Shown: positions 29,482 to 46,233, counted from the stretch's first letter. The stretch: DNA of 64,000 bases from Candidatus Omnitrophota bacterium (GCA_003141835.1 PLNR01000011.1:107804-171803), one strand, 5' to 3'. The notes: generated from the sequence alone by a model not told the origin. Program-made: numbers and translations.

Positions 29482-30243
29482 TCAACTCCACCTGTGAAAA
29501 ATTATCATTGTCTCTTTTACTTCGTTGAAGCCGTTCTTAATATAGGTGTTTTGGGCGGAGACGTTCTTTGCCTGTGTCCCTACCGTGAGTTCCGTTGCCT
29601 GCAATTTTTTTGCGGCGTAGCGGAGCAAGGCCGAGCCGATCCCTTTTCCCTGAAATCTCTTTAAGACGGCTACGAAGAAAAGCCTGGAGCGCTTTCCGTC
29701 CCGGCTGACGTTGGCCAAGACCGCACCGGCTGTTTCATTGCGGAACTTGGCTATGAAGATGCGCCCGGCCTTCGAAGGCCTGAAGCATTTTATGTAATTT
29801 ATCCAGAGCAGGTCCGCTTTTTCTTTGGGGATACGGGTATCCGAATGGAACCTAGAATACCTGAAAACGCCCCCAAGCTCCTCACAGGGAAGGCCTTCGT
29901 TCTTTTTCAATTCAAGCACCTTTACGCCGGGCGCCAAGGACGGATCTTTTGCCTTCCCGCCGGCATATTTGAACGTGATCTCGGTATCTATGTAGGCGAA
30001 GCCCATAGTCTGTAAAAATGCTATCGATCCATTATCCGAATCTGCGGGGATCTTGACCGTCACGAAACTATTTTTGAGCTTACCGGCTGCCATGGCCCTT
30101 ATTTTAGCCGAAGGCACAAGTATGGAATTATCCGCGTCCAGGAGATAACAATCCCTCCCGAAGAAAACGGTATCCCATTCCAGGAACTTGAAATGATATA
30201 CGGCGCCGCCGGCTTTTAGCGTGATATCTTTAGAGGATGCCAT
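29482..30243 (-). CDS. GNAT-family acetyltransferase, candidate PseH-like N-acetyltransferase.
   Basis: FQGKGIGSALL acetyl-CoA loop. Lies immediately downstream of the PseG-like and PseI-like genes. 253 aa. Confidence 0.6.
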   Translation of the reverse strand: MASSKDITLKAGGAVYHFKFLEWDTVFFGRDCYLLDADNSILVPSAKIRAMAAGKLKNSFVTVKIPADSDNGSIAFLQTMGFAYIDTEITFKYAGGKAKDPSLAPGVKVLELKKNEGLPCEELGGVFRYSRFHSDTRIPKEKADLLWINYIKCFRPSKAGRIFIAKFRNETAGAVLANVSRDGKRSRLFFVAVLKRFQGKGIGSALLRYAAKKLQATELTVGTQAKNVSAQNTYIKNGFNEVKETMIIFHRWS

Positions 30244-31231
30244 CGATATAGTCCTTTATTTCCCTTGTCTTGAATACGGCGTTTGGCAGGCGGGTTAACG
30301 GGTCCCGTATACCTTCCAGCAACTTTTTTTCGTCGAAAGACCTGAACCCGAGGTATTTCGCCCAGCCCATTTTATCGAAGTACTCGCACCTGCCTATCTG
30401 GTGTTCGTGAATAGCGATGAGGACCGACGGCGTCCTTGTCGCGACAAGCTCGAAACTGGTAAGCCCGCCCGCGGAAACGGCTATATCGCAATTCATGAAC
30501 TCATCGAACATATTCGTTATATCCTGCTTTATCCTGTATTTAACGCCTGAATCCTTTAAGCTTCCGGCCAGCCCTTCCATGTGCCGGTATCCCCCGCCCA
30601 CGACCACATACAGCTCCAGACCTGTTTTTCCCCTGATAAGGGCATCTACCACTTTTTGGGTGAAATTATATTCATCGGCTCCGCCCATCGATACCAGCAA
30701 TACCTCCGGCTTGCTTTTATAAGACCTGTTACGGATCCTCGTGAAATCAAAATCAAGCGGCAGGACCGCGTACTGCGGCCCAAGAAGGAATTTGGTGCCG
30801 GGATATTTCTTTTGGTCAAACAGCTTATCCGTACCTACATCCCAGTTCACCACCAGTGACATGCCGTCAGGGATAATGCCGTCGAAATTGATGCAGGCCT
30901 TTACCGCGCGATTTGTGACCCCCTTGTATTCCGTCAAGGGCCTTTCCGTTATTTCAAAGAAGGCCGCGTCGATCCCCCGGGACTCGATGTAACCATTTAT
31001 CTCTTCCGTTTCCTTCCCGATCGAATGCGGCCCTATGATAGCTAGATAATTATTTATCTTGTTCCTCTTTACTATTTCGACGGACTCATCATAATCCCTG
31101 ATGATAAAGTGAGATTCCCAGCCGTCATTCTCGAAATAGCGCGACAGGTGGATAAGCGAAACGAGGTCGCCGGTGCCTATCGACTGCTTCGCGTCGGCCC
31201 TGAAAAGCACTTTTTTTGTCACAGTATGCAA
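30230..31231 (-). CDS. pseG: PseG-like UDP-sugar hydrolase (UDP-2,4-diacetamido-2,4,6-trideoxy-beta-L-altropyranose hydrolase family, MurG-like fold).
   Basis: KVLFRADAKQSIGTG near the N-terminus, LVSMGGAD, and C-terminal DIAVSAGGLTSFEL match the conserved PseG blocks. 333 aa. Confidence 0.68.
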   Translation of the reverse strand: MHTVTKKVLFRADAKQSIGTGDLVSLIHLSRYFENDGWESHFIIRDYDESVEIVKRNKINNYLAIIGPHSIGKETEEINGYIESRGIDAAFFEITERPLTEYKGVTNRAVKACINFDGIIPDGMSLVVNWDVGTDKLFDQKKYPGTKFLLGPQYAVLPLDFDFTRIRNRSYKSKPEVLLVSMGGADEYNFTQKVVDALIRGKTGLELYVVVGGGYRHMEGLAGSLKDSGVKYRIKQDITNMFDEFMNCDIAVSAGGLTSFELVATRTPSVLIAIHEHQIGRCEYFDKMGWAKYLGFRSFDEKKLLEGIRDPLTRLPNAVFKTREIKDYIDGIL

Positions 31232-32289
31232 TCCCAGGTTATCGGGTCCTCGAAAAAGATATCTTTCTTTGCGGTGACCTTATTAGCCTTGAAAAGATCC
31301 AGGTATTTAGGCTCTAACCCGCGTTTTTTCTTCCCCGGCCTTAAGATCTCTATATCGGACGGCCCTATCCTCCGGCCTGCTTTTATGTCCTTGTTGGCGA
31401 AAAGCGCCATGTAAGCGAAATCCCTGAGGTATTTTTCCTTCTCGCCGGTGGTCTTCGCGCTGCTGCCGTAGATGAGCTTATCTATCCTGCATTTTCCTGC
31501 TTTAAGGCCGGATCCGGCCTTCCGTATCGCGGCGACCATCTCTTTCAGTTCATCCGGTTCCAGCGCAAAAAAATGGTCCGGCCCTTTCATCCTTTTATCA
31601 AGGGTTATGTGCTTTTCTATCACCCTGGCACCGAGATATACCGCCTGGACCGGGGCCGCGCAGGCCTCTTTGGTATGGTCAGAGTATCCTATCTCGAGGT
31701 CCGGAAAAGCCGACCCAAGGGTCCTGATAACCCCCAAATTACATTCCCTGAGGTCGGTGGGGTAAGCTATGGAGCAATGCAGCAGGGTGAGTTTATCGTG
31801 ATAACGCTTTACGGTGCTTACCGCATCCTCTACCTCCCCGAGCGTCGCCCCGCCGGTCGAGAGGAAGATCCTGAACCGCTTTTTTGCGCAATATTCAATG
31901 AACGGTATGTTGGTAACGGCATAAGAAGGGATCTTTATCGACCTTAACCCTCCGGCGATCAGCATATCCAGGCATGATCTGTCTGAAGCCGAACACAGGA
32001 AATCGATCTTCTTTTTCTTGCAATAGGCCGTCAACTTGCCTATCCAGGCGCGCGGCATCTCAAAACGGGCCGAGGCCTCATATATATCGTAGGAATACTT
32101 CTTGTCGTTATCGGTCCAGTCGAGCCTCCCTGCGCTTTTCGGATAGAGATATTTTGCCTTGAACAACTGGAACTTTGCCGCGTCGCATCCGGCCTCAGCA
32201 GCCGAATCGATAAGCCTGAAACAATTTTCGAGCAGGCCATTATGGTTTATCCCGATCTCGGCTATTATATATACTTTATTTTTCATCAA
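31219..32289 (-). CDS. pseI: Nonulosonic acid synthase (NeuB/PseI/LegI family), most likely pseudaminic acid synthase.
   Basis: YIIAEIGINHNGLLE…AKFQ TIM-barrel N-terminus and a C-terminal SAF domain. 356 aa. Confidence 0.82.
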   Translation of the reverse strand: MMKNKVYIIAEIGINHNGLLENCFRLIDSAAEAGCDAAKFQLFKAKYLYPKSAGRLDWTDNDKKYSYDIYEASARFEMPRAWIGKLTAYCKKKKIDFLCSASDRSCLDMLIAGGLRSIKIPSYAVTNIPFIEYCAKKRFRIFLSTGGATLGEVEDAVSTVKRYHDKLTLLHCSIAYPTDLRECNLGVIRTLGSAFPDLEIGYSDHTKEACAAPVQAVYLGARVIEKHITLDKRMKGPDHFFALEPDELKEMVAAIRKAGSGLKAGKCRIDKLIYGSSAKTTGEKEKYLRDFAYMALFANKDIKAGRRIGPSDIEILRPGKKKRGLEPKYLDLFKANKVTAKKDIFFEDPITWDCIL

Positions 32290-34171
32290 AATTTTTCCTG
32301 AACCAAAGCTCGAGGTTTATCAGCTGCCACAAGAACATCTGGTGGTCCTTGCCGCCTGCCAAATGCTCGTCGTATATCGCGTTCAATCTATCGACCTTAA
32401 AAATACCCCTGCTTTTTACGGATGGTGAATTGATCAGGTCGTATAACTCCCGCCTGTTCGTGGTCCTGAACCATTCGTTGGCGGGTGCTATGAAACCCGC
32501 CTTATCCTTCCTTGTCCTTACTTTCTCCGGTAATACGCCCTTCATGGACTCGCGCAACAGCCATTTCCCCAGGCCGCGGCGTATCTTGAACTTGTTGGGC
32601 AGCGAAAAACAGAACTCCGCAAGCCGGTAATCCAAAAACGGGGACCTCGACTCTATGGACTGGGACATCGTGTTCCTGTCCTCAGGCCTCAATGAGGCGG
32701 GTATCGTCTCGAACATCATCTCCGAATACAGCCGTTTTGATAAAAGGCTGCTGTAAGGGTTAGGCCAATGTATATCCCTCTTATGCCTGGATACTATATC
32801 CGCGTTAAAACATTCCGAGTAATCCGGGAACCTGCTCATTTCGCTGGTCTTGTTATCCACCAGCCGGCCGATATATTCTTTATACTTGTCTATCTCTGAA
32901 ATATCCCTGCCGTGGTTCTCCTTCCAAGTTTTCAACTCTTCCTGCAAAGATACGGCCTCGCCCTTCTGTTCCAGGTCATAAAAATTATAATGATAATGGT
33001 CCCAGTAGCCGGCAAGGAGCTCATCGCCGCCGTGGCCGTTTAACACGACCGGCGTCCTTTCGAGCTTCACTTTCTTGGCGATCAGGTAAAGGCTGTACCA
33101 GGTGACCGTGCATACCGGTTCGTCATGGTAACCCAACATCTCGTTTATGGTGCCAAAGAGATCCGCCGGGTCAGGCCTGATATAATGAAAATCGGCGTTC
33201 GTTTCTTTTATGACCGAATCGATGTACTCGCTCTCATCGTAAACGCCTTTTTTCTCGCCTGTGATCCCGGAGAACGCCACGATCGGTTTTTTCAGGATCT
33301 TGTAAGCGATACTGGTGATGGAAGTCGAATCCAACCCTCCGCTGAGCATGCATCCGACAGGGACATCGCTTCTCAGCCTTAACTTGACTGAATCGACCAG
33401 CAGGGCCTTAAACCTGTCTATCGCTTCGCCGTCGGATATCCCGCTCCTGTCCTCGGACGGGCGCAGCTGCCAATAATGATCCGTCCTGCATCCGAGGTTT
33501 TCATCGATCTCCATAAATGAGCTTTTGGGCACTTGGGAGATGCCGCTGAAATACGAATCCGCATCAACGTCTACATATCTGTAATTTGCCGCGATATACC
33601 TGTATATCTTGTCGTAATTCGGCTCTTTGACGGCCTTCGGGTGCTTCAAGATCCCTTTTATCTCAGAAGCGAATATAAGTTCGTTCCCGTTCTTTTGGTA
33701 ATAAAGCGGTTTTTTACCGAACCTGTCCCTCGACAATATTACTTTTTTACGTTTCTTGTCAAAGATCGCCAAAGCCCACATCCCGTTAAACCGCTCAAAA
33801 CACTCGGTCCCCCACTTCCCGTAGGCCTTAAGCACGACTTCCGTATCGCTCGTAGAGACGAACCGGCATCCGGCGCGGCCCAGTTCTTCCTTAAGCTCAA
33901 GATAATTATAGACCTCGCCGTTAAAGGTGATCGCTGCCCCGGTCTCGGGATCGACCATCGGCTGGCGGCCGGTTTCGGTAAGGTCGATGATCTTAAGCCT
34001 CCTGTGGCCGAATGCGACAAAACCGCCGTTCTTGCCGCTAAAGTCCGAAAAGATACCGCACCCGCTGCCGTCAGGGCCGCGGTGCGACTGCGCATCGGTC
34101 ATATTCTTGATCGTTGATGCCAGGTCGTAATCCGGCTTACGTATGCCGATAACGCCAGCTATGCCGCACAT
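32276..34171 (-). CDS. Asparagine synthase (glutamine-hydrolysing) family amidotransferase. Paralogue 2 of 3.
   Basis: MCGIAG N-terminus and SGGLDST PP-loop. 631 aa. Clearly paralogous to the gene at 128..2029. Confidence 0.88.
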   Translation of the reverse strand: MCGIAGVIGIRKPDYDLASTIKNMTDAQSHRGPDGSGCGIFSDFSGKNGGFVAFGHRRLKIIDLTETGRQPMVDPETGAAITFNGEVYNYLELKEELGRAGCRFVSTSDTEVVLKAYGKWGTECFERFNGMWALAIFDKKRKKVILSRDRFGKKPLYYQKNGNELIFASEIKGILKHPKAVKEPNYDKIYRYIAANYRYVDVDADSYFSGISQVPKSSFMEIDENLGCRTDHYWQLRPSEDRSGISDGEAIDRFKALLVDSVKLRLRSDVPVGCMLSGGLDSTSITSIAYKILKKPIVAFSGITGEKKGVYDESEYIDSVIKETNADFHYIRPDPADLFGTINEMLGYHDEPVCTVTWYSLYLIAKKVKLERTPVVLNGHGGDELLAGYWDHYHYNFYDLEQKGEAVSLQEELKTWKENHGRDISEIDKYKEYIGRLVDNKTSEMSRFPDYSECFNADIVSRHKRDIHWPNPYSSLLSKRLYSEMMFETIPASLRPEDRNTMSQSIESRSPFLDYRLAEFCFSLPNKFKIRRGLGKWLLRESMKGVLPEKVRTRKDKAGFIAPANEWFRTTNRRELYDLINSPSVKSRGIFKVDRLNAIYDEHLAGGKDHQMFLWQLINLELWFRKNFDEK

Positions 34172-34516
34172 CTATCGTTCTTTCCACTCGTCAAGCCAGC
34201 AGATTATCCTGTTATCCTGTCCCGTCTTCAGGTATTTTCTGAACTCCTTCATCTTTTCCTTTTCGACGGCATGGACATATAACTGGTGCCTCTCATTGAC
34301 GACGAGGGCAACCTTGAAACCCTCCTTTTTGAGCCTGCTGTTCAGGGAAGGGCCCAGGTAGAAACCCCAATCTTTGGCGGCAAAATCGCATTCCTTCCCG
34401 CTTTTCGTGACGAAGGATACCATCTCGCCGTCGTTGAGATATATCTTCCCGAGATCCTTTACTTTATGGCCCTTCACCTCAAAGACCCTCGGCGTTCTCT
34501 TGAATTTGGTTTTCAT
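34172..34516 (-). CDS. Small hypothetical protein (~114 aa).
   Basis: The ORF is wedged with zero spacing between an AsnB paralogue and the PseA-like gene. The internal ATG at 34516 gives an ATGA overlap. No recognisable motif. Confidence 0.38.
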   Translation of the reverse strand: MKTKFKRTPRVFEVKGHKVKDLGKIYLNDGEMVSFVTKSGKECDFAAKDWGFYLGPSLNSRLKKEGFKVALVVNERHQLYVHAVEKEKMKEFRKYLKTGQDNRIICWLDEWKER

Positions 34517-35631
34517 TTCCAATCCCGTCCTTTTACCAGAAAATCCTTTATCATCCACCTGCCGTTATCTTTCGACCATATCCTGCGGTTACGGAAATGT
34601 TCTTCGATCTCATGGAAACGGGCCAGGGAGATCCCCAAGAACGCGCACAGCCTGCGGATATCCCCATGCGGGACCTGGGGCCCTGTTTTCGCGATAACGC
34701 CGATTGCCCTTTCCCTCGTCATCCTGCCGTTGCGTATCTCGACCGAGAGGTTATCGAACAGCCTCGTAAAGCCGAACTTAAGCCATTTAAAATAATGGTG
34801 GACCGAGATGAAGTCGCAATCGATATCCGCATAGTCGTAATACCCTAATTTCGGTGCGCCGGGCCTGTTCTTGAACCCGTTCTCACGCGCTACCCTGTAA
34901 GTCTCCTGCGGGTCCCAGGGGATATAAAACCCTAAAAATATTGACTCGATCTTCTTTTCGCTGAATTCTTTGCCGCTTGGCAAAAAATACGGCTCAAGGC
35001 CTTTTCTTGTAAGGTCCCTGCCGACCCAATCCGCCGCCGAAGTCCCCTGCAATATCCCGTGGCGGTTGAACCAGCCCATGTCCAGCCTGTCGCGGTCCCT
35101 GTCCTTCTCAGGCCCGCCGTACTCCATGTGCGGGCTTTCGCCCCACACGACCAGCGGAATATTTAAACGGACCGCTATTTTTAAAGGGATGCTGAATAGC
35201 GCCATATGCATCGGGACTGCGGTGCTTCCCGTCTTTACAAGCGCCTTGTACATAAAGCGCCTTTCTATTTCCGGGTCGATGGAATAATCTATATGGTCGA
35301 CTCCCAGCCGGATGATGTTATCAAGGTTCTCCTGCCCCAATTCCGTCCTCGCCGGGGTCCTCCAGGTTACGGCCAGGATACGCAGCCCGTATTCCAGGCA
35401 TTTAACCACCTGCCAGGTGCTGTCCTTGCCTCCGCTTACCGGGACTATGCAATCATAACCGCCGGCCCTCGATCTCGCCTTACGGATGATCGCGGACAAT
35501 TCTTTCTTTCTTTTTGCCCAATCGATCGTCGCCTTATATTCATGCCCACGGCATGCCGAACAAACGCCATCCGGGCCGATCGTCAAACCCGGCCTTGTAT
35601 CCGGCAAGACACACTTAGCGCAATATCTCAT
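34513..35631 (-). CDS. N-acetyl sugar amidotransferase (PP-loop ATP-pyrophosphatase, WbuX/LfnA/PseA family), predicted to form an acetamidino sugar.
   Basis: N-terminal Zn-ribbon (CAKC…CSAC) followed by the PP-loop VPVSGGKDST. 372 aa. Confidence 0.7.
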   Translation of the reverse strand: MRYCAKCVLPDTRPGLTIGPDGVCSACRGHEYKATIDWAKRKKELSAIIRKARSRAGGYDCIVPVSGGKDSTWQVVKCLEYGLRILAVTWRTPARTELGQENLDNIIRLGVDHIDYSIDPEIERRFMYKALVKTGSTAVPMHMALFSIPLKIAVRLNIPLVVWGESPHMEYGGPEKDRDRDRLDMGWFNRHGILQGTSAADWVGRDLTRKGLEPYFLPSGKEFSEKKIESIFLGFYIPWDPQETYRVARENGFKNRPGAPKLGYYDYADIDCDFISVHHYFKWLKFGFTRLFDNLSVEIRNGRMTRERAIGVIAKTGPQVPHGDIRRLCAFLGISLARFHEIEEHFRNRRIWSKDNGRWMIKDFLVKGRDWK

Positions 35632-36261
35632 CTAAGTTCTTTCCTTGATCTTGACGGCCGGCACTCCCGCCAAAACTGAATTTTTTCCATACCTGCCCTC
35701 CCTTACAAGCGCCTTTGCGCCGACAACGCACCCATCCTCAAGGACCGCACCTTTCATGATCGCCGCGTTAGCCGCTATCCAGACATCGTTGCCGATGGAT
35801 ATCTTACCGTAAGTGTGTTTCTGGTCCTTTATCAGGGCGCCTTTACCGAAACCGTGCTGCGACGACTGTATGAAGATCATCCCTGAAATAAGGCAATCCT
35901 CTCCGATCGTGACATCCGTGCCGCAGTTAAAAAGGCAATATGGGCCGATCGAGGTGCGCTTGCCTATTTTTAAAATGGCGTCATTAGCCGAAACGAACCT
36001 GCAATCGTTATCTATCGCGACCCCGTCTTCGATGACTATCCTGCCGTTCTCCCTGTTCCTTATGTCTATGTCCCCGAAGATAGAGACGTTATCGCCTATC
36101 GAGATGTTGCGCGGATCACCTCTTAATTTCAATTTAGGGATGCCCTCTATGTAAAAATTCTTACCGACACGGATGCCATAGATCTTCAGTATGCTCTTGA
36201 TCACCCAGCTGTGGAAATAGCAGTATTTCTTGTTAGTTACCAGCGCGAGAAAATCAGGCAT
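35632..36261 (-). CDS. Hexapeptide-repeat (LbH) acyl/acetyltransferase.
   Basis: Multiple [LIV]Gxx hexapeptide turns (IGDNVSIFGDIDI…VIEDGVAIDNDC…). 209 aa. Confidence 0.7.
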   Translation of the reverse strand: MPDFLALVTNKKYCYFHSWVIKSILKIYGIRVGKNFYIEGIPKLKLRGDPRNISIGDNVSIFGDIDIRNRENGRIVIEDGVAIDNDCRFVSANDAILKIGKRTSIGPYCLFNCGTDVTIGEDCLISGMIFIQSSQHGFGKGALIKDQKHTYGKISIGNDVWIAANAAIMKGAVLEDGCVVGAKALVREGRYGKNSVLAGVPAVKIKERT

Positions 36262-37930
36262 GTTTGACCCCGTTCACTTTGAAGACTTTTTTCCAGTCCT
36301 CGAATACCATTGTTTTATAAGCGACCCTGTCATATTTACCCTGCCTTCCCCACTCGAACCACCTGTTCACCGGCGCGGAAAAACCCCTCTTATCCGTCCG
36401 CTCGACTATCTCTTTCGGTATGAATTTCCTGGCGACCTCTTTCAAGGCCCATTTGGTGATCCCGTTCTTTATCTTGTATTTTGACGGCATGGAAAAACCG
36501 AACTGGACGAGCCGGTAATCCAGGTACGGCGACCGGTTCTCTATGCTAAAAGCCATGCAAAGCCTGTCCGACATCTGCAGGAGGACCTGCATCGTGGAAT
36601 AGAAATCGTTAAGCCCCATGGCGTGGACTATGTCGTTGCTCATCTTGTCGAAGTAAAACCCGACCGATTCGCGGAGATACCTGTTTACGGATTCGTCATA
36701 CTGGTTCTCGCACCTGTTTATCAGCTTCGAGTATCTCTCTATGGGGCTTCCGTAATATTTGTCGACCAGGTATGAGTACTGTTTCATCGCCTCCAGGTGG
36801 TGTATCTGTTCGTCATGGTGGAGCAGGTGGTACCTGTGGTATCCCGCGAACGTCTCGTCCGCCCCTTCGCCGGAAAGGATCACCTTGAGGTCCTTCCTGG
36901 CCCTTTCCAGCAGCATCCATAACGAGAAGCTCGTCCAGGTGCACGGCGTATCGAGGTGATAGGCTATCTTTTCCCTGGTACGCAGAAAATCATCCCTTGT
37001 AGGCCTTATCACTATCAGTTTTTTCTTGATCTTTTTCGCGACGAGCTGCGCGTAGTCGAGTTCGTTGAAATCCTCATAGTCGTAATGGGCATGATAGATG
37101 AAATCCGGTTTCGCGATGCAGGCGATCAAAGCGCTGTCTACGCCGCCGCTGATAAAACACCCGTAGCTGTGGACGCAATTCTTGGTCCTCAGCATGATCG
37201 CGTCCTCTACCAATTCACCCAGCGTATTCAATACTTTCTTCTCGTTGTCTTTTACCTCGATGAGGTTATCCCATATCTTCCAGTATCCGTGTTTCGTAAA
37301 ATTATTTCCCTTCACCTTAAGGTATTCGCCGGGCTCGAGAGAATAAATGTCCTTAAACAGCGTCTCCGAAGAGACCGTGAATTCGTAAGCCTTATAGGAC
37401 AGGGCCGCGTCGTTAAACCTGGGTTTGACCACCCGGAGAAGGCATTTCATTTCGCTTGCAAACGCGAAGAAATCGCTACCATAAGCGTAATAAACCGGCT
37501 TTTCCCCGGTCTTGTCCCTTACTATATATGTGGTCTTCTTTCTCGCGTCAAAAAGCGCGAAAGCGTACATGCCGTTGTAATCGTTAAACGACTTTTCCCC
37601 GGTCTCGATGTAGTTACAAAGGATCGTCTCGGCCTCGGATGAGGTCTTGAACTCGTACTTGCCGGCCAGCCCCTTTCTTATTGAATCGTGGTTATAGACT
37701 TCACCGTTGTAGACTATCGCGTGGCTTGATGCCGCGTCTTCATACGGTATCCGGTGCCTGGAAGTGTCTATGATGCTCAATCTCGTCATGCCGATGGTGA
37801 CGTCGCCGTACGTCTCCACCCCGCGCTGGTCCGGGCCCCTGTAGCACATGTCATCGAGCATCTTCGACACGACCGACGAGGAGTTATATTTCTTTTTGTT
37901 GGAAGTTGTAAAACCCGCTATGCCGCACAT
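36254..37930 (-). CDS. Asparagine synthase (glutamine-hydrolysing) family amidotransferase. Paralogue 3 of 3.
   Basis: MCGIAG N-terminus and a GGVDSAL PP-loop variant. 558 aa. Confidence 0.82.
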   Translation of the reverse strand: MCGIAGFTTSNKKKYNSSSVVSKMLDDMCYRGPDQRGVETYGDVTIGMTRLSIIDTSRHRIPYEDAASSHAIVYNGEVYNHDSIRKGLAGKYEFKTSSEAETILCNYIETGEKSFNDYNGMYAFALFDARKKTTYIVRDKTGEKPVYYAYGSDFFAFASEMKCLLRVVKPRFNDAALSYKAYEFTVSSETLFKDIYSLEPGEYLKVKGNNFTKHGYWKIWDNLIEVKDNEKKVLNTLGELVEDAIMLRTKNCVHSYGCFISGGVDSALIACIAKPDFIYHAHYDYEDFNELDYAQLVAKKIKKKLIVIRPTRDDFLRTREKIAYHLDTPCTWTSFSLWMLLERARKDLKVILSGEGADETFAGYHRYHLLHHDEQIHHLEAMKQYSYLVDKYYGSPIERYSKLINRCENQYDESVNRYLRESVGFYFDKMSNDIVHAMGLNDFYSTMQVLLQMSDRLCMAFSIENRSPYLDYRLVQFGFSMPSKYKIKNGITKWALKEVARKFIPKEIVERTDKRGFSAPVNRWFEWGRQGKYDRVAYKTMVFEDWKKVFKVNGVKHA

Positions 37931-39250
37931 CTATTTTATATTTCCCATCTTTCCGTCGCCAACCAGGTGATATACCGTCTTGGGGGAGAATTTAAAATCC
38001 TTGAACAAGGCGACGTTATCGATCACAAGCGAGGCGTCGCGTATCCCGAGCGAATCAATATCCTTTTGGGTGAAATATTTATACCTGTTATGATCGGTCA
38101 TCAGGAGCACGGCCTGGCTCTTCAGCCCCTGCTTAAGCAGGTCGACATGGCGCGAGAACGGCAGGAGCTTCCGGATCGTCTTTTCATCGTAAAGCGGGTC
38201 GTCTATATAGACCTCGATCCCGAGTTTGTTCAGGTATTCCGCGATGGCAACGGACGGCGAAAGGTCTATGCTCTTCTGGTTGCCGCGCACCGTAAGCCCC
38301 ATGATCGTCACGGACTTGCAGCCTGCTTTCTTTATTACCTCTGCGTAATTGAAGATCAGGCTCATGTTGGATTCCTGGGATTCCTTGATCAGCGACAGGA
38401 ACTGGGGCTTTTTGCTTCCTTCGGAAATGTTCTCTACGGAGATCGGGATCTTGCTGCCTCCTGCCCCGATACACAGGTGCGACTCGTTAAGCTCGACGTC
38501 ATTGAGGAGATACTTGACCATGCCCCTGACATTCGTATCAGGATAAGCGAAGGAAAGCTGGTTGATGAAGACTGTCGTCATATATTGGAATGTATTCTTG
38601 GCGTTTTCGTAAAGTTCGGCCTCTTTTATCGTCCCGAGGGCCTTGAATTTGATGCCCAGCAGATTATAAAAGAACTGCGCCTCCGCCAATGATTTTTCGC
38701 TATCCGCCGCTAATATGCGTTTTTCGTTGCGGGCGAAATAATCCTCGATAGTCCAATCGCTGCGGAAAGCCGACGCGAAACCGCAGCCGCAGCCGTTCTG
38801 TTTTAACGGCGCGGTAAAATACCTGTCTATCACTCCGGGCCTGCCGGCGGATTGGAATATCACGAGGGCCCCTTTCAGGCGGCGCTTGTTCTTTATGAAT
38901 ATGCCGGCGAGTTCCTTAAGCGCGTTGTTGCCTTCCCTGTCGATCGCGGGGAACGCTATTACATGCACGCGGGAATCGAACATGCGGGCAGGGTCTTTTA
39001 TCATATTTATCCTGGAAATATCCAGGACCGGGATATCGCCGTTCACAGACCAGCTATATACCTGTTCCCTGTCCAGGTATTCGCCTTTCTTCAGTTTCTT
39101 TTCGAAATTCGTGCCGGTATAATCGAAGACGTCGGCCTTAAAACCCCTCGACTGCAGCTTTATGAGTTTCGTATAGCCGAGATACCCGGCTCCCCAAACG
39201 GAAACCAGTTTTGTCTTAAGCAATTCCTCTTTGAAGTTCTTCATGGTCAC
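37931..39250 (-). CDS. Divergent nucleotide-sugar dehydrogenase-family protein (UDP-glucose/GDP-mannose dehydrogenase-like).
   Basis: N-terminal VWGAGYLG Rossmann motif. The C-terminal block GLTVRGNQKSIDLSPSVAIAEYLNKLGIEVYIDDP resembles the UDPG_MGDP_dh C-terminal domain. 439 aa. Confidence 0.5.
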   Translation of the reverse strand: MTMKNFKEELLKTKLVSVWGAGYLGYTKLIKLQSRGFKADVFDYTGTNFEKKLKKGEYLDREQVYSWSVNGDIPVLDISRINMIKDPARMFDSRVHVIAFPAIDREGNNALKELAGIFIKNKRRLKGALVIFQSAGRPGVIDRYFTAPLKQNGCGCGFASAFRSDWTIEDYFARNEKRILAADSEKSLAEAQFFYNLLGIKFKALGTIKEAELYENAKNTFQYMTTVFINQLSFAYPDTNVRGMVKYLLNDVELNESHLCIGAGGSKIPISVENISEGSKKPQFLSLIKESQESNMSLIFNYAEVIKKAGCKSVTIMGLTVRGNQKSIDLSPSVAIAEYLNKLGIEVYIDDPLYDEKTIRKLLPFSRHVDLLKQGLKSQAVLLMTDHNRYKYFTQKDIDSLGIRDASLVIDNVALFKDFKFSPKTVYHLVGDGKMGNIK

Positions 39251-40392
39251 CCCCTTAATAGTTCTTTCAAGTGCCCTGTGACATATCCCGCGTCTTTTAC
39301 CGTCATCGAGGAGAACATCGGGATCGATAATATCTCGTTAAAGATCTTGTTGGCTACGGGAAAATCTCCCGCGCAGAACCTCTTTTTGTAATAGCTGTGC
39401 ATATGGAGAGGTATGTAATGGACGCTGGTCCCTATGTTCCTTTTCTTGAGCTCGATTATCAGGCTGTCCCTCTCCTGCCCCGAAGAGCCGGTCTTTATCA
39501 TGAACAAATGGTAATTGTGGAAGTGCTCGTCCGAATCTTTTGTAAAACCTGCCAAACCGTCCAATTCCTTACGGTAGAACGCCGCGAGCTTCCTGCGTTT
39601 CGCGAGCATCCGGTCGAGTTTCTTTAGCTGCACCAGCCCTATGGCCGCGTGGAGGCTGTCGAGGTTATATTTATATCCCTTCTCTTCGATGTCGTAGAAC
39701 CAGTTGCCGGTCTTGCCGTATCGTTTAAATGCCTGCTTATTAATGCCGAAATAACTTTTTTTCCGTATGCTCTCTATGAGATCCTTATTCCTCGATACCA
39801 CGAGGCCGCCCTCGCCCATGGCCAGGTTCTTTGTAGCGTAAAAACTGAAAACGGCGACGTCCGAGAAATTGCCGATCTTTTTACCGAAGTAGCGCGTCCC
39901 GATGGCATGGGCGGCGTCTTCGATCACCTTCAGGCCGTGCCTTTGCGCCAATTTATTTATCCCGTCTATATCGCAGGGGTATCCCGCTATATGGACCGGG
40001 ATTATCGCCTTGGTCCTTGAAGTGACGAGCCGCGAGGCTTTCTCGAGATCAATGTTCAGCGAATCTTCCTCCACGTCGCAAAGCACAAGTTTCGCGCCCA
40101 CCCAATCGACCACCTGCGCGGTAGCGGCAAAAGTCCATGTCGGGACGATCACCTCGTCGCCGGGCCCGATACCCAGCGCCTCAAGCGAAAGATGGAGGCC
40201 TGCGGTGCAGGAATTTAACCCAACGGCATAGAGCTGTTCCGGGCCTTTCAGGTAATCGACGATTTTGTCTTCAAATTCGGTGACTTTCGGGCCGGTCGTC
40301 CACCAGCCTGACCGCAAGACCGCCGCGGCGGCCTTCACCTCCTCATCCGAAACTTCAGGCCTCGAAAACGGAAGGAAATCTTTCCTTATCAT
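39247..40392 (-). CDS. DegT/DnrJ/EryC1/StrS-family PLP-dependent sugar aminotransferase (ArnB/PseC-like).
   Basis: FLPFSRPEVSDEEVKAAAAVLRSGWWTTGP N-terminus and a conserved lysine region. 381 aa. Confidence 0.85.
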   Translation of the reverse strand: MIRKDFLPFSRPEVSDEEVKAAAAVLRSGWWTTGPKVTEFEDKIVDYLKGPEQLYAVGLNSCTAGLHLSLEALGIGPGDEVIVPTWTFAATAQVVDWVGAKLVLCDVEEDSLNIDLEKASRLVTSRTKAIIPVHIAGYPCDIDGINKLAQRHGLKVIEDAAHAIGTRYFGKKIGNFSDVAVFSFYATKNLAMGEGGLVVSRNKDLIESIRKKSYFGINKQAFKRYGKTGNWFYDIEEKGYKYNLDSLHAAIGLVQLKKLDRMLAKRRKLAAFYRKELDGLAGFTKDSDEHFHNYHLFMIKTGSSGQERDSLIIELKKRNIGTSVHYIPLHMHSYYKKRFCAGDFPVANKIFNEILSIPMFSSMTVKDAGYVTGHLKELLRG

Positions 40393-41243
40393 TTTTCAAC
40401 CACCTCCCCTGTTCCCTGTTGCCCGACTTCGGGATACCAGCTGTCGCATTTCGCGCATAGCGAGTCCGTAAAAACGAGTTTTTCGTGTTCCATCCTCAAC
40501 CGGGCGTATTTTTCATTATGCCAGATCTCTCTTATAGTCTGCGAATTGACGTCGCCCATCGGCTCGCCGGCCCAATCATGGTTGCACCTGCCGGTCTTTC
40601 CGTCATAATAGACAAGCAGCTCGTAGTTAGGCATCACGCAGGGCTTTCTTTCTTTGCGCGGCTTGCGTATCGCGCCGAAGACGCCATTTATCGAGTGCTC
40701 CTCGTATACCCGGATCCTGTCGACCTTTCCGTCCCATATCTTCTTAAAAAGCTCGACGTTATTTTGAGGCGTCCCGGCCGTCTTTACCATCGATACCTGC
40801 GTCCTGACCTTCCCTTTATTGAATTTCAGGAAATCCAGGATGTTGCCTTCCACGGCGGAATATACGGCAGGCTTCCTGGTTTTATCGAAGACCGAAGGGA
40901 CATCTATACTGAAAGAGATGAAAGTAAGGCCCTTTACGATCGCTTCAAATTTTTCCGGATTGAGGAGCGTGGCGTTCGTCGCCATCTGAACTTCCTTGAA
41001 TTTCCCCGGGATATACCCCATCAGGCTGTTGAAGGCCGGATGAAGCAGGCTCTCTCCTCTCCTGTGCAGGACCAGGATGGTATCGGGAAAAGGGCTTATC
41101 TCATCTATGATCTTCCTGAAAAGTTTTTCGCTTATGAACCCGCTCGGGTTATCCAAATAACTACGCGGGCAATAGGTGCAGCGCAGGTTGCAGGAATTGG
41201 AAAGCTCGATCTCTACCCTTTTAGGAAAATCAGGAGTCAGCAT
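40389..41243 (-). CDS. Radical SAM protein (non-B12), possibly with a C-terminal Cys-rich auxiliary (twitch/SPASM-like) region.
   Basis: ELSNSCNLRCTYCP CxxxCxxC motif, and CAKCDSW near the C-terminus. 284 aa. Confidence 0.75.
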   Translation of the reverse strand: MLTPDFPKRVEIELSNSCNLRCTYCPRSYLDNPSGFISEKLFRKIIDEISPFPDTILVLHRRGESLLHPAFNSLMGYIPGKFKEVQMATNATLLNPEKFEAIVKGLTFISFSIDVPSVFDKTRKPAVYSAVEGNILDFLKFNKGKVRTQVSMVKTAGTPQNNVELFKKIWDGKVDRIRVYEEHSINGVFGAIRKPRKERKPCVMPNYELLVYYDGKTGRCNHDWAGEPMGDVNSQTIREIWHNEKYARLRMEHEKLVFTDSLCAKCDSWYPEVGQQGTGEVVEK

Positions 41244-41926
41244 TTTTTTTCTTTCAACAGCAGGTCAAATATATCCCTCGACTTGAAATCATAAACCGGG
41301 CCCAGGGCCGCGGCTATTTTATTGCATAACTTAATGTCTTCGGGATTATCGACTGTCAGCGAAATATCCGATATCTCCAACGGGCGCATCTTTGCGTCAA
41401 CAAATTTCGTTTTGAATTTTCCATTGTTATTCTTCAGGAACAGGGTGACATGCTCAGACTCGGCTTCGGATGCCCCTTCGGAAGACCTCCGCAGCGCTGA
41501 CAAGGTAATGACTTCCGAGTCCAGCCCGGCGATACAAGTGTTTTTATCCGGCGCGACGTAATCCAGCCCTTCATCAGCCTGTATATTGAACATTTTGTCT
41601 ATGAGCCCGGTGTCTACGAACGGGGAATCGCCGCATACCCGGCAAACGACGCCCGCTTTAAAAAACTCGGCGGCTTTTATATACCTGTCCAGGACGTTAT
41701 CAAGCGACCCGCGGAAGGCCTTGATCCCGCGCTTTACGCAATAAGCATAAAGCCCGTCATCACTGCCGTCGTCCGAGGTGATAACGGCGATGATCTCCGC
41801 TTCTTTCGAGGCCGAAGACCTTTTGTAGACATATTCGACCAAAGGTACGCCATCCAGGACCGGAGCGAGCATCTTTCCCGGGAATCTTTTTGAAGAAGAA
41901 CGCGCCTGGATCAACAAGGCCTTCAT
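41237..41926 (-). CDS. CMP-nonulosonic-acid synthetase / acylneuraminate cytidylyltransferase family (PseF/NeuA/SpsF-like).
   Basis: MKALLIQARSSSKRFPGK (cytidylyltransferase P-loop). 229 aa. Confidence 0.7.
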   Translation of the reverse strand: MKALLIQARSSSKRFPGKMLAPVLDGVPLVEYVYKRSSASKEAEIIAVITSDDGSDDGLYAYCVKRGIKAFRGSLDNVLDRYIKAAEFFKAGVVCRVCGDSPFVDTGLIDKMFNIQADEGLDYVAPDKNTCIAGLDSEVITLSALRRSSEGASEAESEHVTLFLKNNNGKFKTKFVDAKMRPLEISDISLTVDNPEDIKLCNKIAAALGPVYDFKSRDIFDLLLKEKKC

Positions 41927-42025: not shown

Positions 42026-42535
42026 CTAAAGCCTCTCCACCACGTCGTTGTCCACTTCCGCGGCCAACGACCTGCCGAGAAGGTCCACCGAGATGACCAG
42101 CGTGCCCTTTTTGTCGTTGAATTTCTCGAATATGCCGATAGCTCCCCTGAGCGGCCCGTCTACAACGACGATCCTCTCGCCGGCGTTCAGGTAAGGGTGC
42201 GGCGACGGATCTATCCCCGATTCTACGATCATTCTTACGCTCTCTATCTGCTCTACGGGAATGGCCAGGGGGGCCGTTTTTGTGCCCAGGATATTGACCA
42301 CGCCTTCGGTCTTTTTGACCTCAAGCCAATCCTGGGTGGTAGCGGCACACTCGACAAAAAGATAGCCCGGGAAAAGCGGCCTTGCCACTTTTATCTTCCT
42401 GTCCTTCCTCCTGCTCCATTTGAGGACGGTCGGATAGAAGGTCTTGATCGATCTCTTGTTCAGGAGGTAGCTTACCTTGAACTCGTAGTTCGACCGCGTC
42501 CTTACCGCATACCATTTGTGGGCAAGCGCTATCAT
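42026..42535 (-). CDS. NusG/RfaH-family transcription antitermination paralogue (UpxY/LoaP-like), locus-specific.
   Basis: NGN domain (KWYAVRTRSNYEFKV…PLFPGYLFV) plus a KOW motif (GERIVVVDGPLRGAIGIF). 169 aa. Located at the head of the glycan operon rather than in a secE-nusG-rplK context. Confidence 0.8.
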   Translation of the reverse strand: MIALAHKWYAVRTRSNYEFKVSYLLNKRSIKTFYPTVLKWSRRKDRKIKVARPLFPGYLFVECAATTQDWLEVKKTEGVVNILGTKTAPLAIPVEQIESVRMIVESGIDPSPHPYLNAGERIVVVDGPLRGAIGIFEKFNDKKGTLVISVDLLGRSLAAEVDNDVVERL

Positions 42536-42538
42536 ATT

Positions 42539-43239: not shown

Positions 43240-44169
43240 TCAAGCGAAAAACTTGAAGAATTGGACCGTTCTCTTCAGCCCGTCATTTAGGTTAACTTTA
43301 GGGCTCCATTTGAGGATTTTTTTAGCTTTGGAAATATCCGGCCTGCGGACCTTTGGGTCATCTATGGGAAGGCGTTTATACGCTATCCTGCTTCTGCTTC
43401 CGGTGAGCGATAATATCCTTTTGGCCAGTTCAAGCAGGGTCTCTTCGTTGGGGTTGCCTATGTTGACCGGGGCATTCTCGCCGGATAGCATCAAGGCGTA
43501 GAGCCCCCTTACGAGGTCGTCTACGTAACAAAAACTCCTCGTCTGCCTGCCTTTTCCGTATACGGTGATCGGCTTGCCTTCGAGGGCCTGCATTATGAAA
43601 TTCGGTATCGCGCGTCCGTCGTTTTTGCGCATGCGCGGGCCGTAGGTATTGAAGATGCGGACGATCTTTGTATCGAGCTTATGCACCCGGTGGTAGGCCA
43701 TAGTTATCGCCTCGGCGAAACGCTTCGCCTCGTCGTAGACGCCTCTCGGGCCTATCGGGTTTACGTTGCCCCAATATGATTCCGGTTGGGGGTTTACGAG
43801 CGGGTCGCCGTATACTTCGCTCGTCGAGGCAAGCAGGAATTTTGCCCCCTTTGCCTTCGCGAGGCCCAAGGCGTTGTGCGTCCCCAAGCTTCCCACTTTC
43901 AGGGTCTGGATGGGATACATCAGGTAGTCGACAGGGCTCGCCGGAGAGGCGAAATGGAGGACATAGTCCAGCGGCCCGGCGACATTTATCTTGACCGAGA
44001 CGTTATGGTTCACGAATTTGAAATTCTTGTTGCCCAGAAGATGGGCGATGTTCTCTTTCTTGCCGGTTATAAGGTTATCCACGCAGATGACCTTATGCCC
44101 TTTGCCTATGAGAAAATCGCAGAGGTGCGACCCGATGAAACCTGCCCCTCCGGTTATTAGTATCCTCAA
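43240..44169 (-). CDS. UDP-glucuronate decarboxylase (UXS/ArnA-C-terminal-like extended SDR).
   Basis: [41 protein letters not shown] is UXS-like. The track ORF reaches 44304 with an Arg-rich, non-homologous extension. A TTG at 44169 preceded by GGAGGGGGG and overlapping the upstream stop is the likely start. Confidence 0.78.
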
Positions 44170-45287
44170 TTTCCCCCCTCCAGAAAATCTATCACTGCCT
44201 GCGCGACGAAACCGGCCTCCTCTTCGTTCAGCTCCGGAAAGACGGGAAGGGCGAGCACTTCTTCGCACGCCTTTTCGCTCACCGGGAAATCGCCTTTCTT
44301 CCATCCGAGCCCGCTATAGACAGGCTGCAGGTGCAGCGGTATCGGGTAATATACAGCCGTAGCGACATCCTTCACGGTAAGCGACTCCCTCAATTTGTCC
44401 CTCTCCTTTATCTTTATGTTATAAATATTATATACGTGTTTCCGGTCCTTTTTCTCGACGGGGACCGTCAATTTTCCGGCCCTGCTTAAATTTTCGAATA
44501 ATTTGTCATAAATGCCGGCGTTATTGCGCCGGGAATCGTTCCACGCGTCTAAATGCCGCAATTTGACCCTTAATATCGCCGCCTGGAGCTCATCGAGCCT
44601 GCTGTTCCGGCCTTCTGTCTCGTGGCGATACCTGCCGGCTTGCCCGTGGGCGCGAAGCATCATTACCCTGTCGGCAAGCGCCTTATTGTCAGTCGTTACC
44701 ATGCCCCCGTCGCCGAAACAACCCAGGTTCTTGCTCGGGAAGAAACTGAAACATCCGATATCCCCGAAACCTCCGACCTTTTTCGACCTGAATTCGGCGC
44801 CTATCGCCTGCGCGCAGTCCTCGATGATCTTTATGCCGTGTTTTTCGGCAATGCCCATAACGGCAACCATGTCGCAGGCCTGGCCGAAGAGATGGACCGG
44901 TACTATTGCCTTCGTCCTTGGAGTTATCGCTTTCTCTATGCGGTCCGCGTCTATATTAAAGGTATCAGGTTCGATATCGACGAGAACGGGTTTCGCGCCG
45001 TTAAGGCAGATAGCTTCGGTGGTAGCGATGAAAGTAAACGGGGTAGTAATGACTTCGTCGCCGTCTCCTATGCCAAAAGATTTAATGGCAAGTTCCAGGG
45101 CATCGGTGCCGTTAGCTACGCCGACCGCGTATTTCGTACCGCAATAAGCAGCAGCCTCTTCCTCGAATTTCGCGACGTTCTCTCCGAGTATGAAAACGCC
45201 TTTTTCAAGGACAGCCTTCACGGCCGGGTCTATCTCACCCTGTAATTCCCTGTACTGCCTGACCAGTTCCAGCAACGGCACTTTCAT
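44166..45287 (-). CDS. DegT/DnrJ/EryC1-family sugar aminotransferase (WbpE/ArnB/WecE-like).
   Basis: [12 protein letters not shown]…[13 protein letters not shown]…[12 protein letters not shown]. 373 aa. Confidence 0.85.
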
Positions 45288-45288
45288 T

Positions 45289-46233
45289 TCAGCTTTTTCC
45301 GCTCACCGATTTGAAATACTCGACGGTTTTTTTCAGGCCCGATACAAAATCGACTTTGGGATCAAGTTTTAAGAGTTTCTTCATTTTCGTCACATCCGCT
45401 AGCGTATGCTTGACGTCTCCGGCCCGCGGCGGCATGAACTTAGGCTTTATATCTTTCCCTATGATCTCGTTGAGTATGCGGACTAATTCGAGCAGATTGT
45501 ACCCCTTGCCGCAAGCGACATTAAATGCCTCTCCCGATACCCCTTCGCGCACCGCCGCGGCAAGGTTCGCCTCTACGACATTGTCCACATAAGTGAAATC
45601 CCGGCTTTGCTTCCCGTCGCCGTCTACAGGCGGTTGCTCGTCTTTCAGGATACAGGTGATGAATTTAGGGATAACTACGGCGTATTCCGATTCAAGCGAT
45701 TGCCTTGGCCCGAATACGTTAAAATACCGGAGCGCCACGGTCTCAAGGCCGTAGGATTTAGCGAAGACCCGGAGATAATGTTCGCCGGAAAGTTTGGTGG
45801 CGGCGTATGGAGAAATAGGCTGCGGTATCTGGTCTTCGCTCTGCGGAAGCTTGACCGTATCCCCGTAGACCGAGCTGGACGACGCGAAGACTACCCTTTT
45901 TATCTTGTTCTCATGGGAAGCGACCAGGACGCTGAGGGTGCCTTTGACGTTTACGTCGTCATACAATAACGGGTTCTCCAGGGACTTCGGAACGGAACGG
46001 AGCGCGGCCTGGTGTATGACATAATCGCAACCCCCCAGCGCTTTTTTCAATGCGGCGGGATCGCGTATGTCCCCTTCTATCAATTCGATCTTGCTAAGGA
46101 CATCCTCAAGGTTCTTCTTTTTTCCCGACGAGAAATCGTCGAGGACCTTTACTTCTTCGCGTCGGCGCACAAGTTCATCGACGATACTGGAACCGATGAA
46201 TCCCGCGCCTCCGGTGACAAGGTATCTGGCCAT
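45289..46233 (-). CDS. NAD-dependent UDP-sugar 4-epimerase (WbpP/TviC/UDP-GlcA 4-epimerase-like).
   Basis: [18 protein letters not shown] and YAATK. 314 aa. Paired with the upstream dehydrogenase as in WbpO-WbpP and TviB-TviC pairs. Confidence 0.78.
   Translation of the reverse strand: MARYLVTGGAGFIGSSIVDELVRRREEVKVLDDFSSGKKKNLEDVLSKIELIEGDIRDPAALKKALGGCDYVIHQAALRSVPKSLENPLLYDDVNVKGTLSVLVASHENKIKRVVFASSSSVYGDTVKLPQSEDQIPQPISPYAATKLSGEHYLRVFAKSYGLETVALRYFNVFGPRQSLESEYAVVIPKFITCILKDEQPPVDGDGKQSRDFTYVDNVVEANLAAAVREGVSGEAFNVACGKGYNLLELVRILNEIIGKDIKPKFMPPRAGDVKHTLADVTKMKKLLKLDPKVDFVSGLKKTVEYFKSVSGKS

Follow-up and report, generated by a model that had tools for sequence, protein, structure and literature searches.

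The stretch of DNA analysed here, hereafter the window, comprises 64,000 nucleotides of a Candidatus Omnitrophota bacterium (GCA_003141835.1, PLNR01000011.1:107804-171803) and encodes three AsnB-family glutamine amidotransferases, named A1, A2 and A3, within one glycan locus. The open reading frames (ORFs) had been placed by an earlier note at 128..2029, 32276..34171 and 36254..37930; these coordinates were exact, and all three ORFs are full-length and on the minus strand. The window is almost wholly one minus-strand co-directional gene array, and about 50 kb around the copies carry co-directional glycan genes, in agreement with the single glycan locus proposed in that note. A3 and A2 delimit a five-gene block (32276..37930) that also contains genes for a hexapeptide acetyltransferase and a WbuX-type amidotransferase as well as a 114-aa ORF. 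The last two lie between A2 and A3 and were missing from the earlier note. In transcription order, the genes of the block, followed by A1, are:

36254..37930, minus strand: A3, a short AsnB-family glutamine amidotransferase of 558 aa with Pfam and NCBIfam matches; core member of the type I nonulosonic-acid module described below
35632..36261, minus strand: hexapeptide-repeat acetyltransferase (WbbJ/WcaF-like), a frequent partner just upstream of WbuX, which its orthologues adjoin in many loci
34513..35631, minus strand: WbuX-type N-acetyl sugar amidotransferase (TIGR03573) with the PP-loop SGGKDS
34172..34516, minus strand: conserved 114-aa ORF, invariant neighbour of this WbuX subtype
32276..34171, minus strand: A2, a long AsnB-family glutamine amidotransferase of 631 aa with Pfam and NCBIfam matches; accessory member that occurred solely on the downstream side of WbuX and the small ORF
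128..2029, minus strand: A1, an AsnB-family amidotransferase of 633 aa with GATase_6/7 and Asn_synthase domains; WbpS/eps_aminotran_1-like, adjoining GT4 glycosyltransferases

GATase_6/7 and Asn_synthase domains were detected alike in A1, A2 and A3 (E 1e-28 to 1e-107; PF00733, 4e-60 to 6e-107). As previously claimed, the Cys2 glutaminase and PP-loop synthetase motifs are kept in all three copies, the N-terminus reading MCGI and the SGGxDS motif appearing in A1 to A3 as LSGGIDSS, LSGGLDST and ISGGVDSA. A2 is 34% and A3 28% identical to A1, and A2-type and A3-type proteins shared about 30% identity in BLAST. Because the mutual identity is only about 28-34%, the copies are old paralogues and not recent duplicates. 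Conservation was analyzed with about 120 relatives per copy in a 365-sequence alignment, using Escherichia coli AsnB numbering. The glutaminase residues C1, R49, N74, E76 and D98 and the synthetase residues (PP-loop, D351, E352, Y357, K429 and K449) were 94-100% conserved, with the PP-loop, D351, E352, K429 and K449 at 100% in the three clades. In A2, A3 and the proteins of a further clade, X, which is the sister of A2, the synthetase domain likewise kept its PP-loop, Mg-binding and Lys residues without exception (100%). A loss of K449 in A2 and A3, hinted at by a small alignment, was rejected as a misalignment, since the 365-sequence alignment gave K449 in 100%. The enzymes of each clade are predicted to be catalytically complete amidotransferases that hydrolyse glutamine, use ATP and amidate a carboxylate on an acceptor specific to the clade.

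Judged from their sequences, the copies are not asparagine synthetases of the E. coli type. In the phylogenetic tree A1, A2 and A3 formed three separate deep clades, each about 30% identical to E. coli AsnB (29-32%). The cutoff of NF006949 (499 bits) was missed by all of them (A1 326, A2 240 and A3 247 bits; E. coli AsnB control, 1050 bits), and their orthologues were located in glycan loci elsewhere, which upholds the earlier view of them as glycan-locus rather than housekeeping enzymes. The cutoff of the broad model TIGR01536, "asparagine synthase (glutamine-hydrolyzing)", was passed by all three. E348, D384 and R387 of E. coli AsnB, which we take to be the aspartate-handling positions, were replaced clade by clade. 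At position 348 the A1 clade had D (100%), the A2 clade H (97%) and the A3 clade D or E; in the same order, position 384 was S or T, N, S or T, and D or N, and position 387 was K, A or P, and M, a comparison that is supportive and not decisive because the alignment near 376-387 spans a large insertion. Position 322 was S, V and W in the A1, A2 and A3 clades.

The block from A3 to A2 was conserved across phyla. Its synteny was observed in Campylobacterota, Nitrospirota, Acidobacteriota, Desulfobacterota, Omnitrophota and one metagenome-assembled genome of Brocadiaceae, i.e., in at least six phyla. The A2 clade, with members 50-71% identical, included Omnitrophota, Nitrospirota, Acidobacteriota, Elusimicrobiota, Campylobacterota and Maridesulfovibrio, and it was sharply bounded: among species-representative genomes, identities of 47-63% were followed by values of at most 37% for full-length matches. 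The A3 clade (63-84% identical) included Nitrospirota, Campylobacterota (Sulfuricurvum kujiense DSM 16994), Omnitrophota, Desulfobacter and Nitrospinales. WbuX and an ORF of about 115 aa were present in all 12 loci ascertained by A2, from which L083 and L084 had been left out for their fragmentary, multi-piece AsnB matches. The side-by-side AsnB-like pieces of these two loci were 43-63% identical to A2 and may be pseudogenised or frameshifted paralogue arrays. In all A3-bearing loci examined, genes for a CMP-transferase, a radical-SAM (rSAM)/SPASM protein, an aminotransferase and a dehydrogenase-like protein preceded A3, and NeuB directly followed in three of them. WbuX and the small ORF were found in two of the four loci ascertained by A3, and S. 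kujiense (L087) and L090 carried the A3 module without WbuX or A2.

For a sample free of ascertainment by the AsnB copies, metagenome contigs were searched with the small-ORF family alone, giving 231 relatives, and 80 loci were kept. Of the 36 loci that reached 9 kb or more, every one had WbuX as a neighbour of the small ORF apart from L180, for which blastp listed WbuX and no small-ORF match. Of the 34 informative loci, 31 had an AsnB-family gene upstream of WbuX at a distance of up to 3.3 kb (13 A3-type and 18 X-type). On the downstream side of WbuX and the small ORF, such a gene was present in 19 of 38 loci, of which 17 carried the A2 type. These distributions suggest a nested dependency, correlative in nature, in which A3 or X can occur alone, WbuX and the small ORF need A3 or X, and A2 needs WbuX and the small ORF.

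Some carriers displayed further neighbours. In L090, a 4.6-Mb genome, and in L091 the A3 module lies beside very large tetratricopeptide-repeat proteins (2344 aa and 740 aa), and in L090 it also adjoins motA and motB, suggesting FlmG-type flagellin glycosylation in some carriers. In the NulO loci L097 (a Pseudohalocynthiibacter plasmid), L004 and L087, a gene for an HpcH/HpaI-family aldolase recurs next to NeuB, AsnB or a second CTP_transf_3 gene.

In the window, the block is part of an operon with the order CMP-transferase, rSAM/SPASM, PseC-like aminotransferase, dehydrogenase-like protein, A3, hexapeptide acetyltransferase, WbuX, 114-aa ORF and A2, followed by NeuB, a PseG-like protein, GNAT, a B12-binding rSAM and a LIC12162-like putative transferase. 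Neighbouring genes from the CMP-transferase through GNAT overlap or abut (gaps of -14 to 0 nt) and therefore form a single translationally coupled operon. The members outside the block are:

42026..42535, minus strand: UpxY-family NusG-like antiterminator heading the nonulosonic-acid operon (NF033644, 109 bits against a cutoff of 100)
41237..41926, minus strand: CTP_transf_3 cytidylyltransferase, module head
40389..41243, minus strand: rSAM/SPASM enzyme with BtrN as its only solved relative
39247..40392, minus strand: PseC/ArnB-like sugar aminotransferase of the type I module (family matches and synteny)
37931..39250, minus strand: UDP-sugar-dehydrogenase-like protein without the catalytic Cys (GAGGSKIP), invariably next to A3 on its upstream side
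31219..32289, minus strand: NeuB-family nonulosonic acid synthase (PF03102, 2e-73)
30230..31231, minus strand: PseG-like (GT28-C) nucleotide-sugar hydrolase (TIGR03590, 103 bits, under the cutoff; weak PF04101 match)
29482..30243, minus strand: GNAT acetyltransferase (PseH/WecD-like)

A NeuB-family synthase, an aminotransferase, an NDP-sugar hydrolase and a CMP-transferase thus stand in one operon, and all remained under the equivalog cutoffs of the pathways for nonulosonic acids (NulOs): 282 of 400 bits for NeuB, 215 of 340 for PseI, 355 of 424 for PseC and 103 of about 154 for PseG. Two types of loci could be distinguished. In type I (A3-bearing) loci, the BtrN-like rSAM and the dehydrogenase-like protein were present in 12 of 12, and a gene resembling a dehydratase or epimerase of the short-chain dehydrogenase/reductase (SDR) family was nearby in only two of 12. 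The type II (X-bearing) loci displayed the opposite pattern, with the rSAM and dehydrogenase-like genes in none of 13 and such an SDR gene nearby in 12 of 13. In the window, SDR genes are located elsewhere in the locus, upstream of the antiterminator, e.g., at 43240..44304. BtrN was the only relative of the rSAM/SPASM protein in the PDB (E 7e-10), the similarity being confined to the C-terminal auxiliary-cluster domain, and the rSAM gene overlaps the downstream aminotransferase gene. BtrN converts a C-OH group to a ketone ahead of transamination. By analogy, the type I loci may make a keto-sugar without a 4,6-dehydratase.

The dehydrogenase-like protein at 37931..39250, always positioned between the aminotransferase and A3, carries Lys at the position of the catalytic Cys in all nine sequences compared (the window and eight orthologues). 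Because of this replacement it is not a classical 6-dehydrogenase, and the idea that it makes a uronic acid for A3, following the logic of WbpO and WbpS, was rejected in this form. The earlier note had presumably counted it as one of two UDP-HexNAc dehydrogenases. A bona fide one is located at 46238..47548.

The WbuX-type gene of the window scored 325 bits with TIGR03573 (cutoff 203) and matched the Legionella pneumophila NASAT structure PDB 8WEX (E 5e-42). Canonical WbuX receives ammonia from the HisH/HisF-like proteins WbuY and WbuZ. Among five plasmid loci with canonical WbuX genes, which were 26-31% identical to that of the window, adjacent HisH- and HisF-like genes were found in four, one of them annotated as wbuZ. 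A tblastn search with E. coli HisH and HisF gave no match in the window or in 19 related loci, and the positive control worked. Within the loci ascertained by the small ORF, HisH/HisF-like genes were present in two, namely L113, which has a separate canonical WbuX in addition, and L166, in which a second WbuX-family ORF adjoins them. Of the plasmid WbuX genes, one from Azospirillum brasilense MTCC4039 (p5) was alone in being close to that of the window (56% identity), and its gene order was NeuB, X-type asnB, WbuX, small ORF and two methyltransferases, with no HisH/HisF. The 114-aa ORF had no Pfam or NCBIfam match (Pfam matches at E up to 10 were noise), contained 19 invariant columns over 14 orthologues, and gave a single-sequence AlphaFold model with a predicted local distance difference test (pLDDT) score of 52.8.

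Glycan loci were already known to contain AsnB-family amidotransferases, and A1 is a new but unremarkable representative of them. Its best model was TIGR03108, with 676 bits over 1-623 of 628, which is less than the curated cutoff of 816.9. The same model gave 366 bits for A2, with the best stretch at 1-402, and 293 bits for A3 (1-377), that is, over the N-terminal half, and was outscored by TIGR01536 in both. The relatives of A1 at 62-89% identity were all from Candidatus Omnitrophota where an organism was named, and an A1-like gene from Desulfobacter, again with TIGR03108 as the best model, grouped with A1 and a fourth copy (below) in the tree. In two other omnitrophote contigs the A1 orthologue is located between a GT4 glycosyltransferase and an ORF of about 237 aa, with a second AsnB paralogue in the same glycan locus. 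Because this order is conserved in glycan loci, A1 belongs to glycan synthesis and is no housekeeping gene that strayed into the locus. A blastn search ("distant") with the A1 DNA against E. coli genomes gave no match. WbpS of Pseudomonas aeruginosa O6, WbqG of E. coli O121 and PGN_1234 of Porphyromonas gingivalis are reportedly included in eps_aminotran_1, a family for which genetic evidence of uronamide formation exists (PMC7468200); such evidence extends to WbpS of Helicobacter pullorum (PMC6025236). The link between A1 and WbpS is based on the TIGR03108 match together with the former study. Genes for uronic-acid supply were identified about 44 kb from A1 in the same co-directional locus, and the presence of a 6-dehydrogenase and a 4-epimerase agrees with the WbpO/WbpP logic:

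50642..51967, minus strand: UDP-glucose 6-dehydrogenase (Ugd), as reported before
46238..47548, minus strand: bona fide UDP-HexNAc 6-dehydrogenase, likely uronic-acid supplier (TIGR03026, 447 bits; GGHC motif)
45289..46233, minus strand: TviC/WbpP-like UDP-HexNAc(A) 4-epimerase

The two bona fide dehydrogenases of the window keep the Cys (GGHCIP and GGFCFP).

The number of three AsnB copies, put forward earlier, stood inside the window, but a fourth AsnB-family gene is located about 4 kb past its left edge on the same contig (L088:16011-17876; MCGICG after start correction). The sequence covered was the window plus about 10 kb, i.e., about 74 kb of the 222-kb contig ENA ERZ27254250 k141_150837. 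TIGR03108 was the best model of the fourth copy as well (503 bits). A1, and probably also the fourth copy, are predicted to be WbpS-like enzymes converting a UDP-hexuronic or HexNAc-uronic acid to a uronamide. The genes beyond the window are a transglutaminase-core protein, Wzx, DegT, rSAM/SPASM, the fourth AsnB, a formyltransferase and WbqC. Wzx precedes the fourth copy, whose neighbours are DegT, two rSAM/SPASM genes, a formyltransferase-GNAT fusion, WbqC and an SDR. The adjacency of rSAM/SPASM and AsnB recurs there with a different AsnB clade, and it was also seen in L093.

Taken together, we lean towards a reading in which A1, and likely the fourth copy, form hexuronamides, while A3, then WbuX with its small partner, and then A2 tailor a single NulO with nitrogen, so that its acidic charge is lost or inverted. 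The AsnB copies would hydrolyse glutamine at Cys2 and adenylate a carboxylate at the PP-loop site, yielding a primary carboxamide. A3 would belong to the core of a variant NulO route (type I), in which a BtrN-like radical-SAM dehydrogenase and the Cys-less UDP-glucose dehydrogenase (UGDH)-like protein would act in place of a 4,6-dehydratase-type SDR, ahead of the PseC-like aminotransferase. Sequential tailoring of one NulO is suggested by the nested dependency among A3 or X, WbuX with the small ORF, and A2; the order would be a carboxamide, then an amidine, then a further carboxamide, and the net effect would be removal or inversion of the negative charge. Acetimidoylation neutralises charge (bioRxiv 10.64898/2026.04.20.719630). 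A1, and probably the fourth copy, would act apart from this route on UDP-hexuronic or HexNAc-uronic acids provided by the dehydrogenases of the locus, giving uronamides.

Several points weigh against this reading. A standard Pse- or Leg-type NulO offers one carboxylate (C1), and two further amidations need extra carboxylates; candidates for these are a terminal carbon that has been oxidised and an N-acyl group that is acidic. The dehydrogenase-like protein of the module does not have the cysteine needed for making a uronic acid. To our knowledge, no carboxamide-bearing NulO has been described, and carboxamide NulOs were not found in our literature searches. Some of the metagenome loci are near-duplicates, which inflates the counts, and the hierarchy of synteny is correlative. 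The score of A1 under the TIGR03108 cutoff and the insertion in the aspartate-site alignment belong here as well. An alternative with a rather low probability in our estimation is a new NulO pathway in which the HisH/HisF-less WbuX and its 114-aa partner act on an AsnB-made carboxamide and not on an N-acetyl group. In that case the BtrN-like radical-SAM enzyme would make the keto-sugar without a 4,6-dehydratase, leaving the sugar with a terminal carbon that can still be oxidised; carboxamides installed by AsnB-type enzymes would then undergo a QueC-like amide activation by WbuX to an amidine or a nitrile. The resulting sialic-acid-like sugar, neutral or cationic, would carry several amide or amidine groups and would be widespread among environmental anaerobes.

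A proposal along the lines of the earlier note is that all three copies are WbpS-type enzymes which convert hexuronic acids, made with Ugd and the UDP-HexNAc dehydrogenases, to uronamides, so that the glycan would hold several different kinds of amidated uronic residue. Loci for glycans that contain uronamides are known to carry AsnB-family genes (PMC7468200, PMC6025236), and uronic-acid supply genes are present in the window. A1 indeed resembles the WbpS family, with a full-length best match and a uronic-acid route in the window, and a bona fide UDP-sugar dehydrogenase is located directly upstream of the A3 module in some Campylobacterota loci (L004 and L087). For A2 and A3 the proposal was not supported. 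Their TIGR03108 matches are limited to the N-terminal, glutaminase half, they form separate deep clades with different acceptor-side residues, and they co-vary with NeuB, WbuX and rSAM genes as fixed members of a nonulosonic-acid block and not with uronic-acid genes. Near A3 in loci such as L089-L091, none of the called genes had the complete domain set of a UDP-sugar dehydrogenase, and the protein beside A3 has no catalytic Cys. Three equivalent WbpS-type enzymes are therefore unlikely in our view. It is far less probable still that one or more copies are the asparagine synthetase of the organism, or a paralogue supplying Asn- or Gln-derived nitrogen, located in the locus by chance. All three pass TIGR01536 and are so annotated by database sources, but they fail NF006949, share about 30% identity with E. 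coli AsnB and have E348, D384 and R387 replaced clade by clade. The orthologues of all three are located in glycan loci of other taxa, the copies overlap their glycan neighbours, and S. kujiense has an extra AsnB-family gene beside metK, outside the cassette.

Another explanation concerns the source of ammonia. WbuX chemistry requires ammonia (PMC10607449), and an AsnB-family protein, either A3 or X upstream or A2 downstream, could be the glutaminase that feeds it to WbuX in place of WbuY and WbuZ, with the 114-aa protein as an adaptor and an acetamidino-NulO as the product. The scarcity of HisH/HisF-like genes around this subtype (none in the window and 19 related loci, and only two occurrences among the loci ascertained by the small ORF), their adjacency to canonical WbuX in four of five loci, and the upstream AsnB-family gene in 31 of 34 loci are all consistent with it. 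However, the synthetase sites are 100% conserved in A2, A3 and X, a pattern unexpected for proteins serving as nothing more than a glutaminase scaffold. S. kujiense L087 and L090 have A3 but no WbuX, an AsnB-family gene lies beside a canonical WbuXYZ set in L097, and no fusion of the AsnB-family, WbuX and small proteins was seen. This explanation is thus considered doubtful, and the tailoring of one NulO by A3, WbuX and A2 remains the reading we prefer.

The remainder of the array is transcribed from right to left. It starts with housekeeping genes (dnaK, dnaJ, accD and others), followed by ugd, rmlABD, the UDP-HexNAc 6-dehydrogenase, the TviC-like 4-epimerase, DegT and an SDR, and then by a helix-turn-helix regulator and the UpxY-family antiterminator. 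The regulator belongs to HTH_24 and precedes the antiterminator (42026-43150, minus strand); an array of more than 40 kb follows. Such an antitermination arrangement is in the style of Bacteroides capsules and is found here in a probable omnitrophote. After the NulO operon come B12-binding rSAMs, methyltransferases, glycosyltransferases, WbpB/D-like genes, WecB, PMT_2 GT-C proteins, two GT4 genes and A1. Three B12-binding radical-SAM enzymes, which are methyltransferase-like, are located at 18877-20370, 23262-24746 and 28068-29474 (minus strand), and the type at 28068-29474 was 62-66% identical in many related loci and travels together with the cassette. At least seven S-adenosylmethionine methyltransferases were detected in the locus, which together with the B12-binding enzymes suggest C-methylation of the glycan.

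A 511-aa ORF without a family match lies beside the LIC12162-family putative transferase (24750-26285 and 26290-28071, minus strand), and since members of the latter family recur downstream of NulO genes, it is a candidate NulO transferase. Two PMT_2 (GT-C, ArnT/PMT-like) membrane glycosyltransferases (4312-5730 and 6744-8303, minus strand), also present in the omnitrophote locus L092, hint at glycosylation of protein or lipid on the periplasmic face. Between ugd and a ROK kinase, a 755-aa ORF (51967-54234, minus strand) displayed weak N-terminal similarity to OstA/LptD-N/LptC and may encode an envelope transport protein.

AsnB-family genes of polysaccharide loci are usually annotated as "asparagine synthase" or lumped as WbpS-like. 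The locus region harbors at least four functionally distinct clades of them, and A2 and A3 define a conserved cross-phylum operon block that we assign to NulO tailoring. If this assignment is correct, many environmental bacteria (Omnitrophota, Nitrospirota, Campylobacterota, Desulfobacterota and Azospirillum) would display charge-removed or charge-inverted sialic-acid-like sugars, with effects on phage and lectin recognition and on the reading of NulO mass-spectrometry surveys. It would also imply a WbuX subtype working without ammonia delivery by HisH/HisF. Three carriers can be cultured: Sulfuricurvum kujiense DSM 16994, with the type I core and A3 but neither WbuX nor A2; Maridesulfovibrio zosterae, with WbuX, the small ORF and A2; and Azospirillum brasilense MTCC4039 (plasmid p5), of type II with X, WbuX and the small ORF. 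Our literature searches gave no account of the clades A2, A3 and X, of the way they are tied to the small ORF and a WbuX without HisH/HisF, or of the SDR-poor, BtrN-like type I module; a guess about the AsnB of Tannerella forsythia (PMC6120980) was the sole related statement, and HisH/HisF were not dealt with in a paper on the Legionella lipopolysaccharide locus.

Compared with known systems, A1, A2 and A3 belong to the same fold family as E. coli AsnB and human ASNS (PDB 1CT9 and 6GQ3) and keep the glutaminase and ATP/PP-loop residues; they differ in their identity of about 30%, their scores under NF006949, the clade-specific positions 348, 384 and 387 and the glycan context. With WbpS, WbqG, PGN_1234 and H. 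pullorum WbpS they share the two-domain architecture of a Cys2 glutaminase and a PP-loop synthetase in a glycan locus with a UDP-HexNAc dehydrogenase and a 4-epimerase. For A1 this family is the best and full-length model, although its score is under the curated cutoff, whereas A2 and A3 match the N-terminal half, form separate clades and are part of a NulO operon. The window WbuX resembles the WbuX/WbuY/WbuZ systems (PseA, PtmG and AglXYZ) in passing TIGR03573, in its PP-loop, in the 8WEX match and in its NulO locus. The subtype differs from them in having no HisH/HisF-like partners and, instead, an invariant ORF of about 115 aa and AsnB-family neighbours.

The Pse and Leg pathways (PseBCHGIF and LegBCHGIF) have co-operonic counterparts in the window, namely the NeuB-family, PseG-like, PseC-like, GNAT and CMP-transferase genes. 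These are under the equivalog cutoffs, and the type I loci mostly have no PseB/LegB-type SDR and carry the BtrN-like radical-SAM enzyme, the Cys-less UGDH-like protein and A3 instead. The pairing of BtrN with an aminotransferase in butirosin formation is paralleled by the sole solved relative of the rSAM/SPASM protein and by its gene overlap with the aminotransferase; the similarity is limited to the C-terminal domain, and the substrate here would be a nucleotide sugar. The AsnB Tanf_01265 is encoded in the Pse-containing O-glycan locus of Tannerella forsythia, where its role was only guessed (PMC6120980). By its description, that locus is similar in holding an AsnB-family gene while also making a Pse derivative, but it differs in having the standard pseBCFHGI set.

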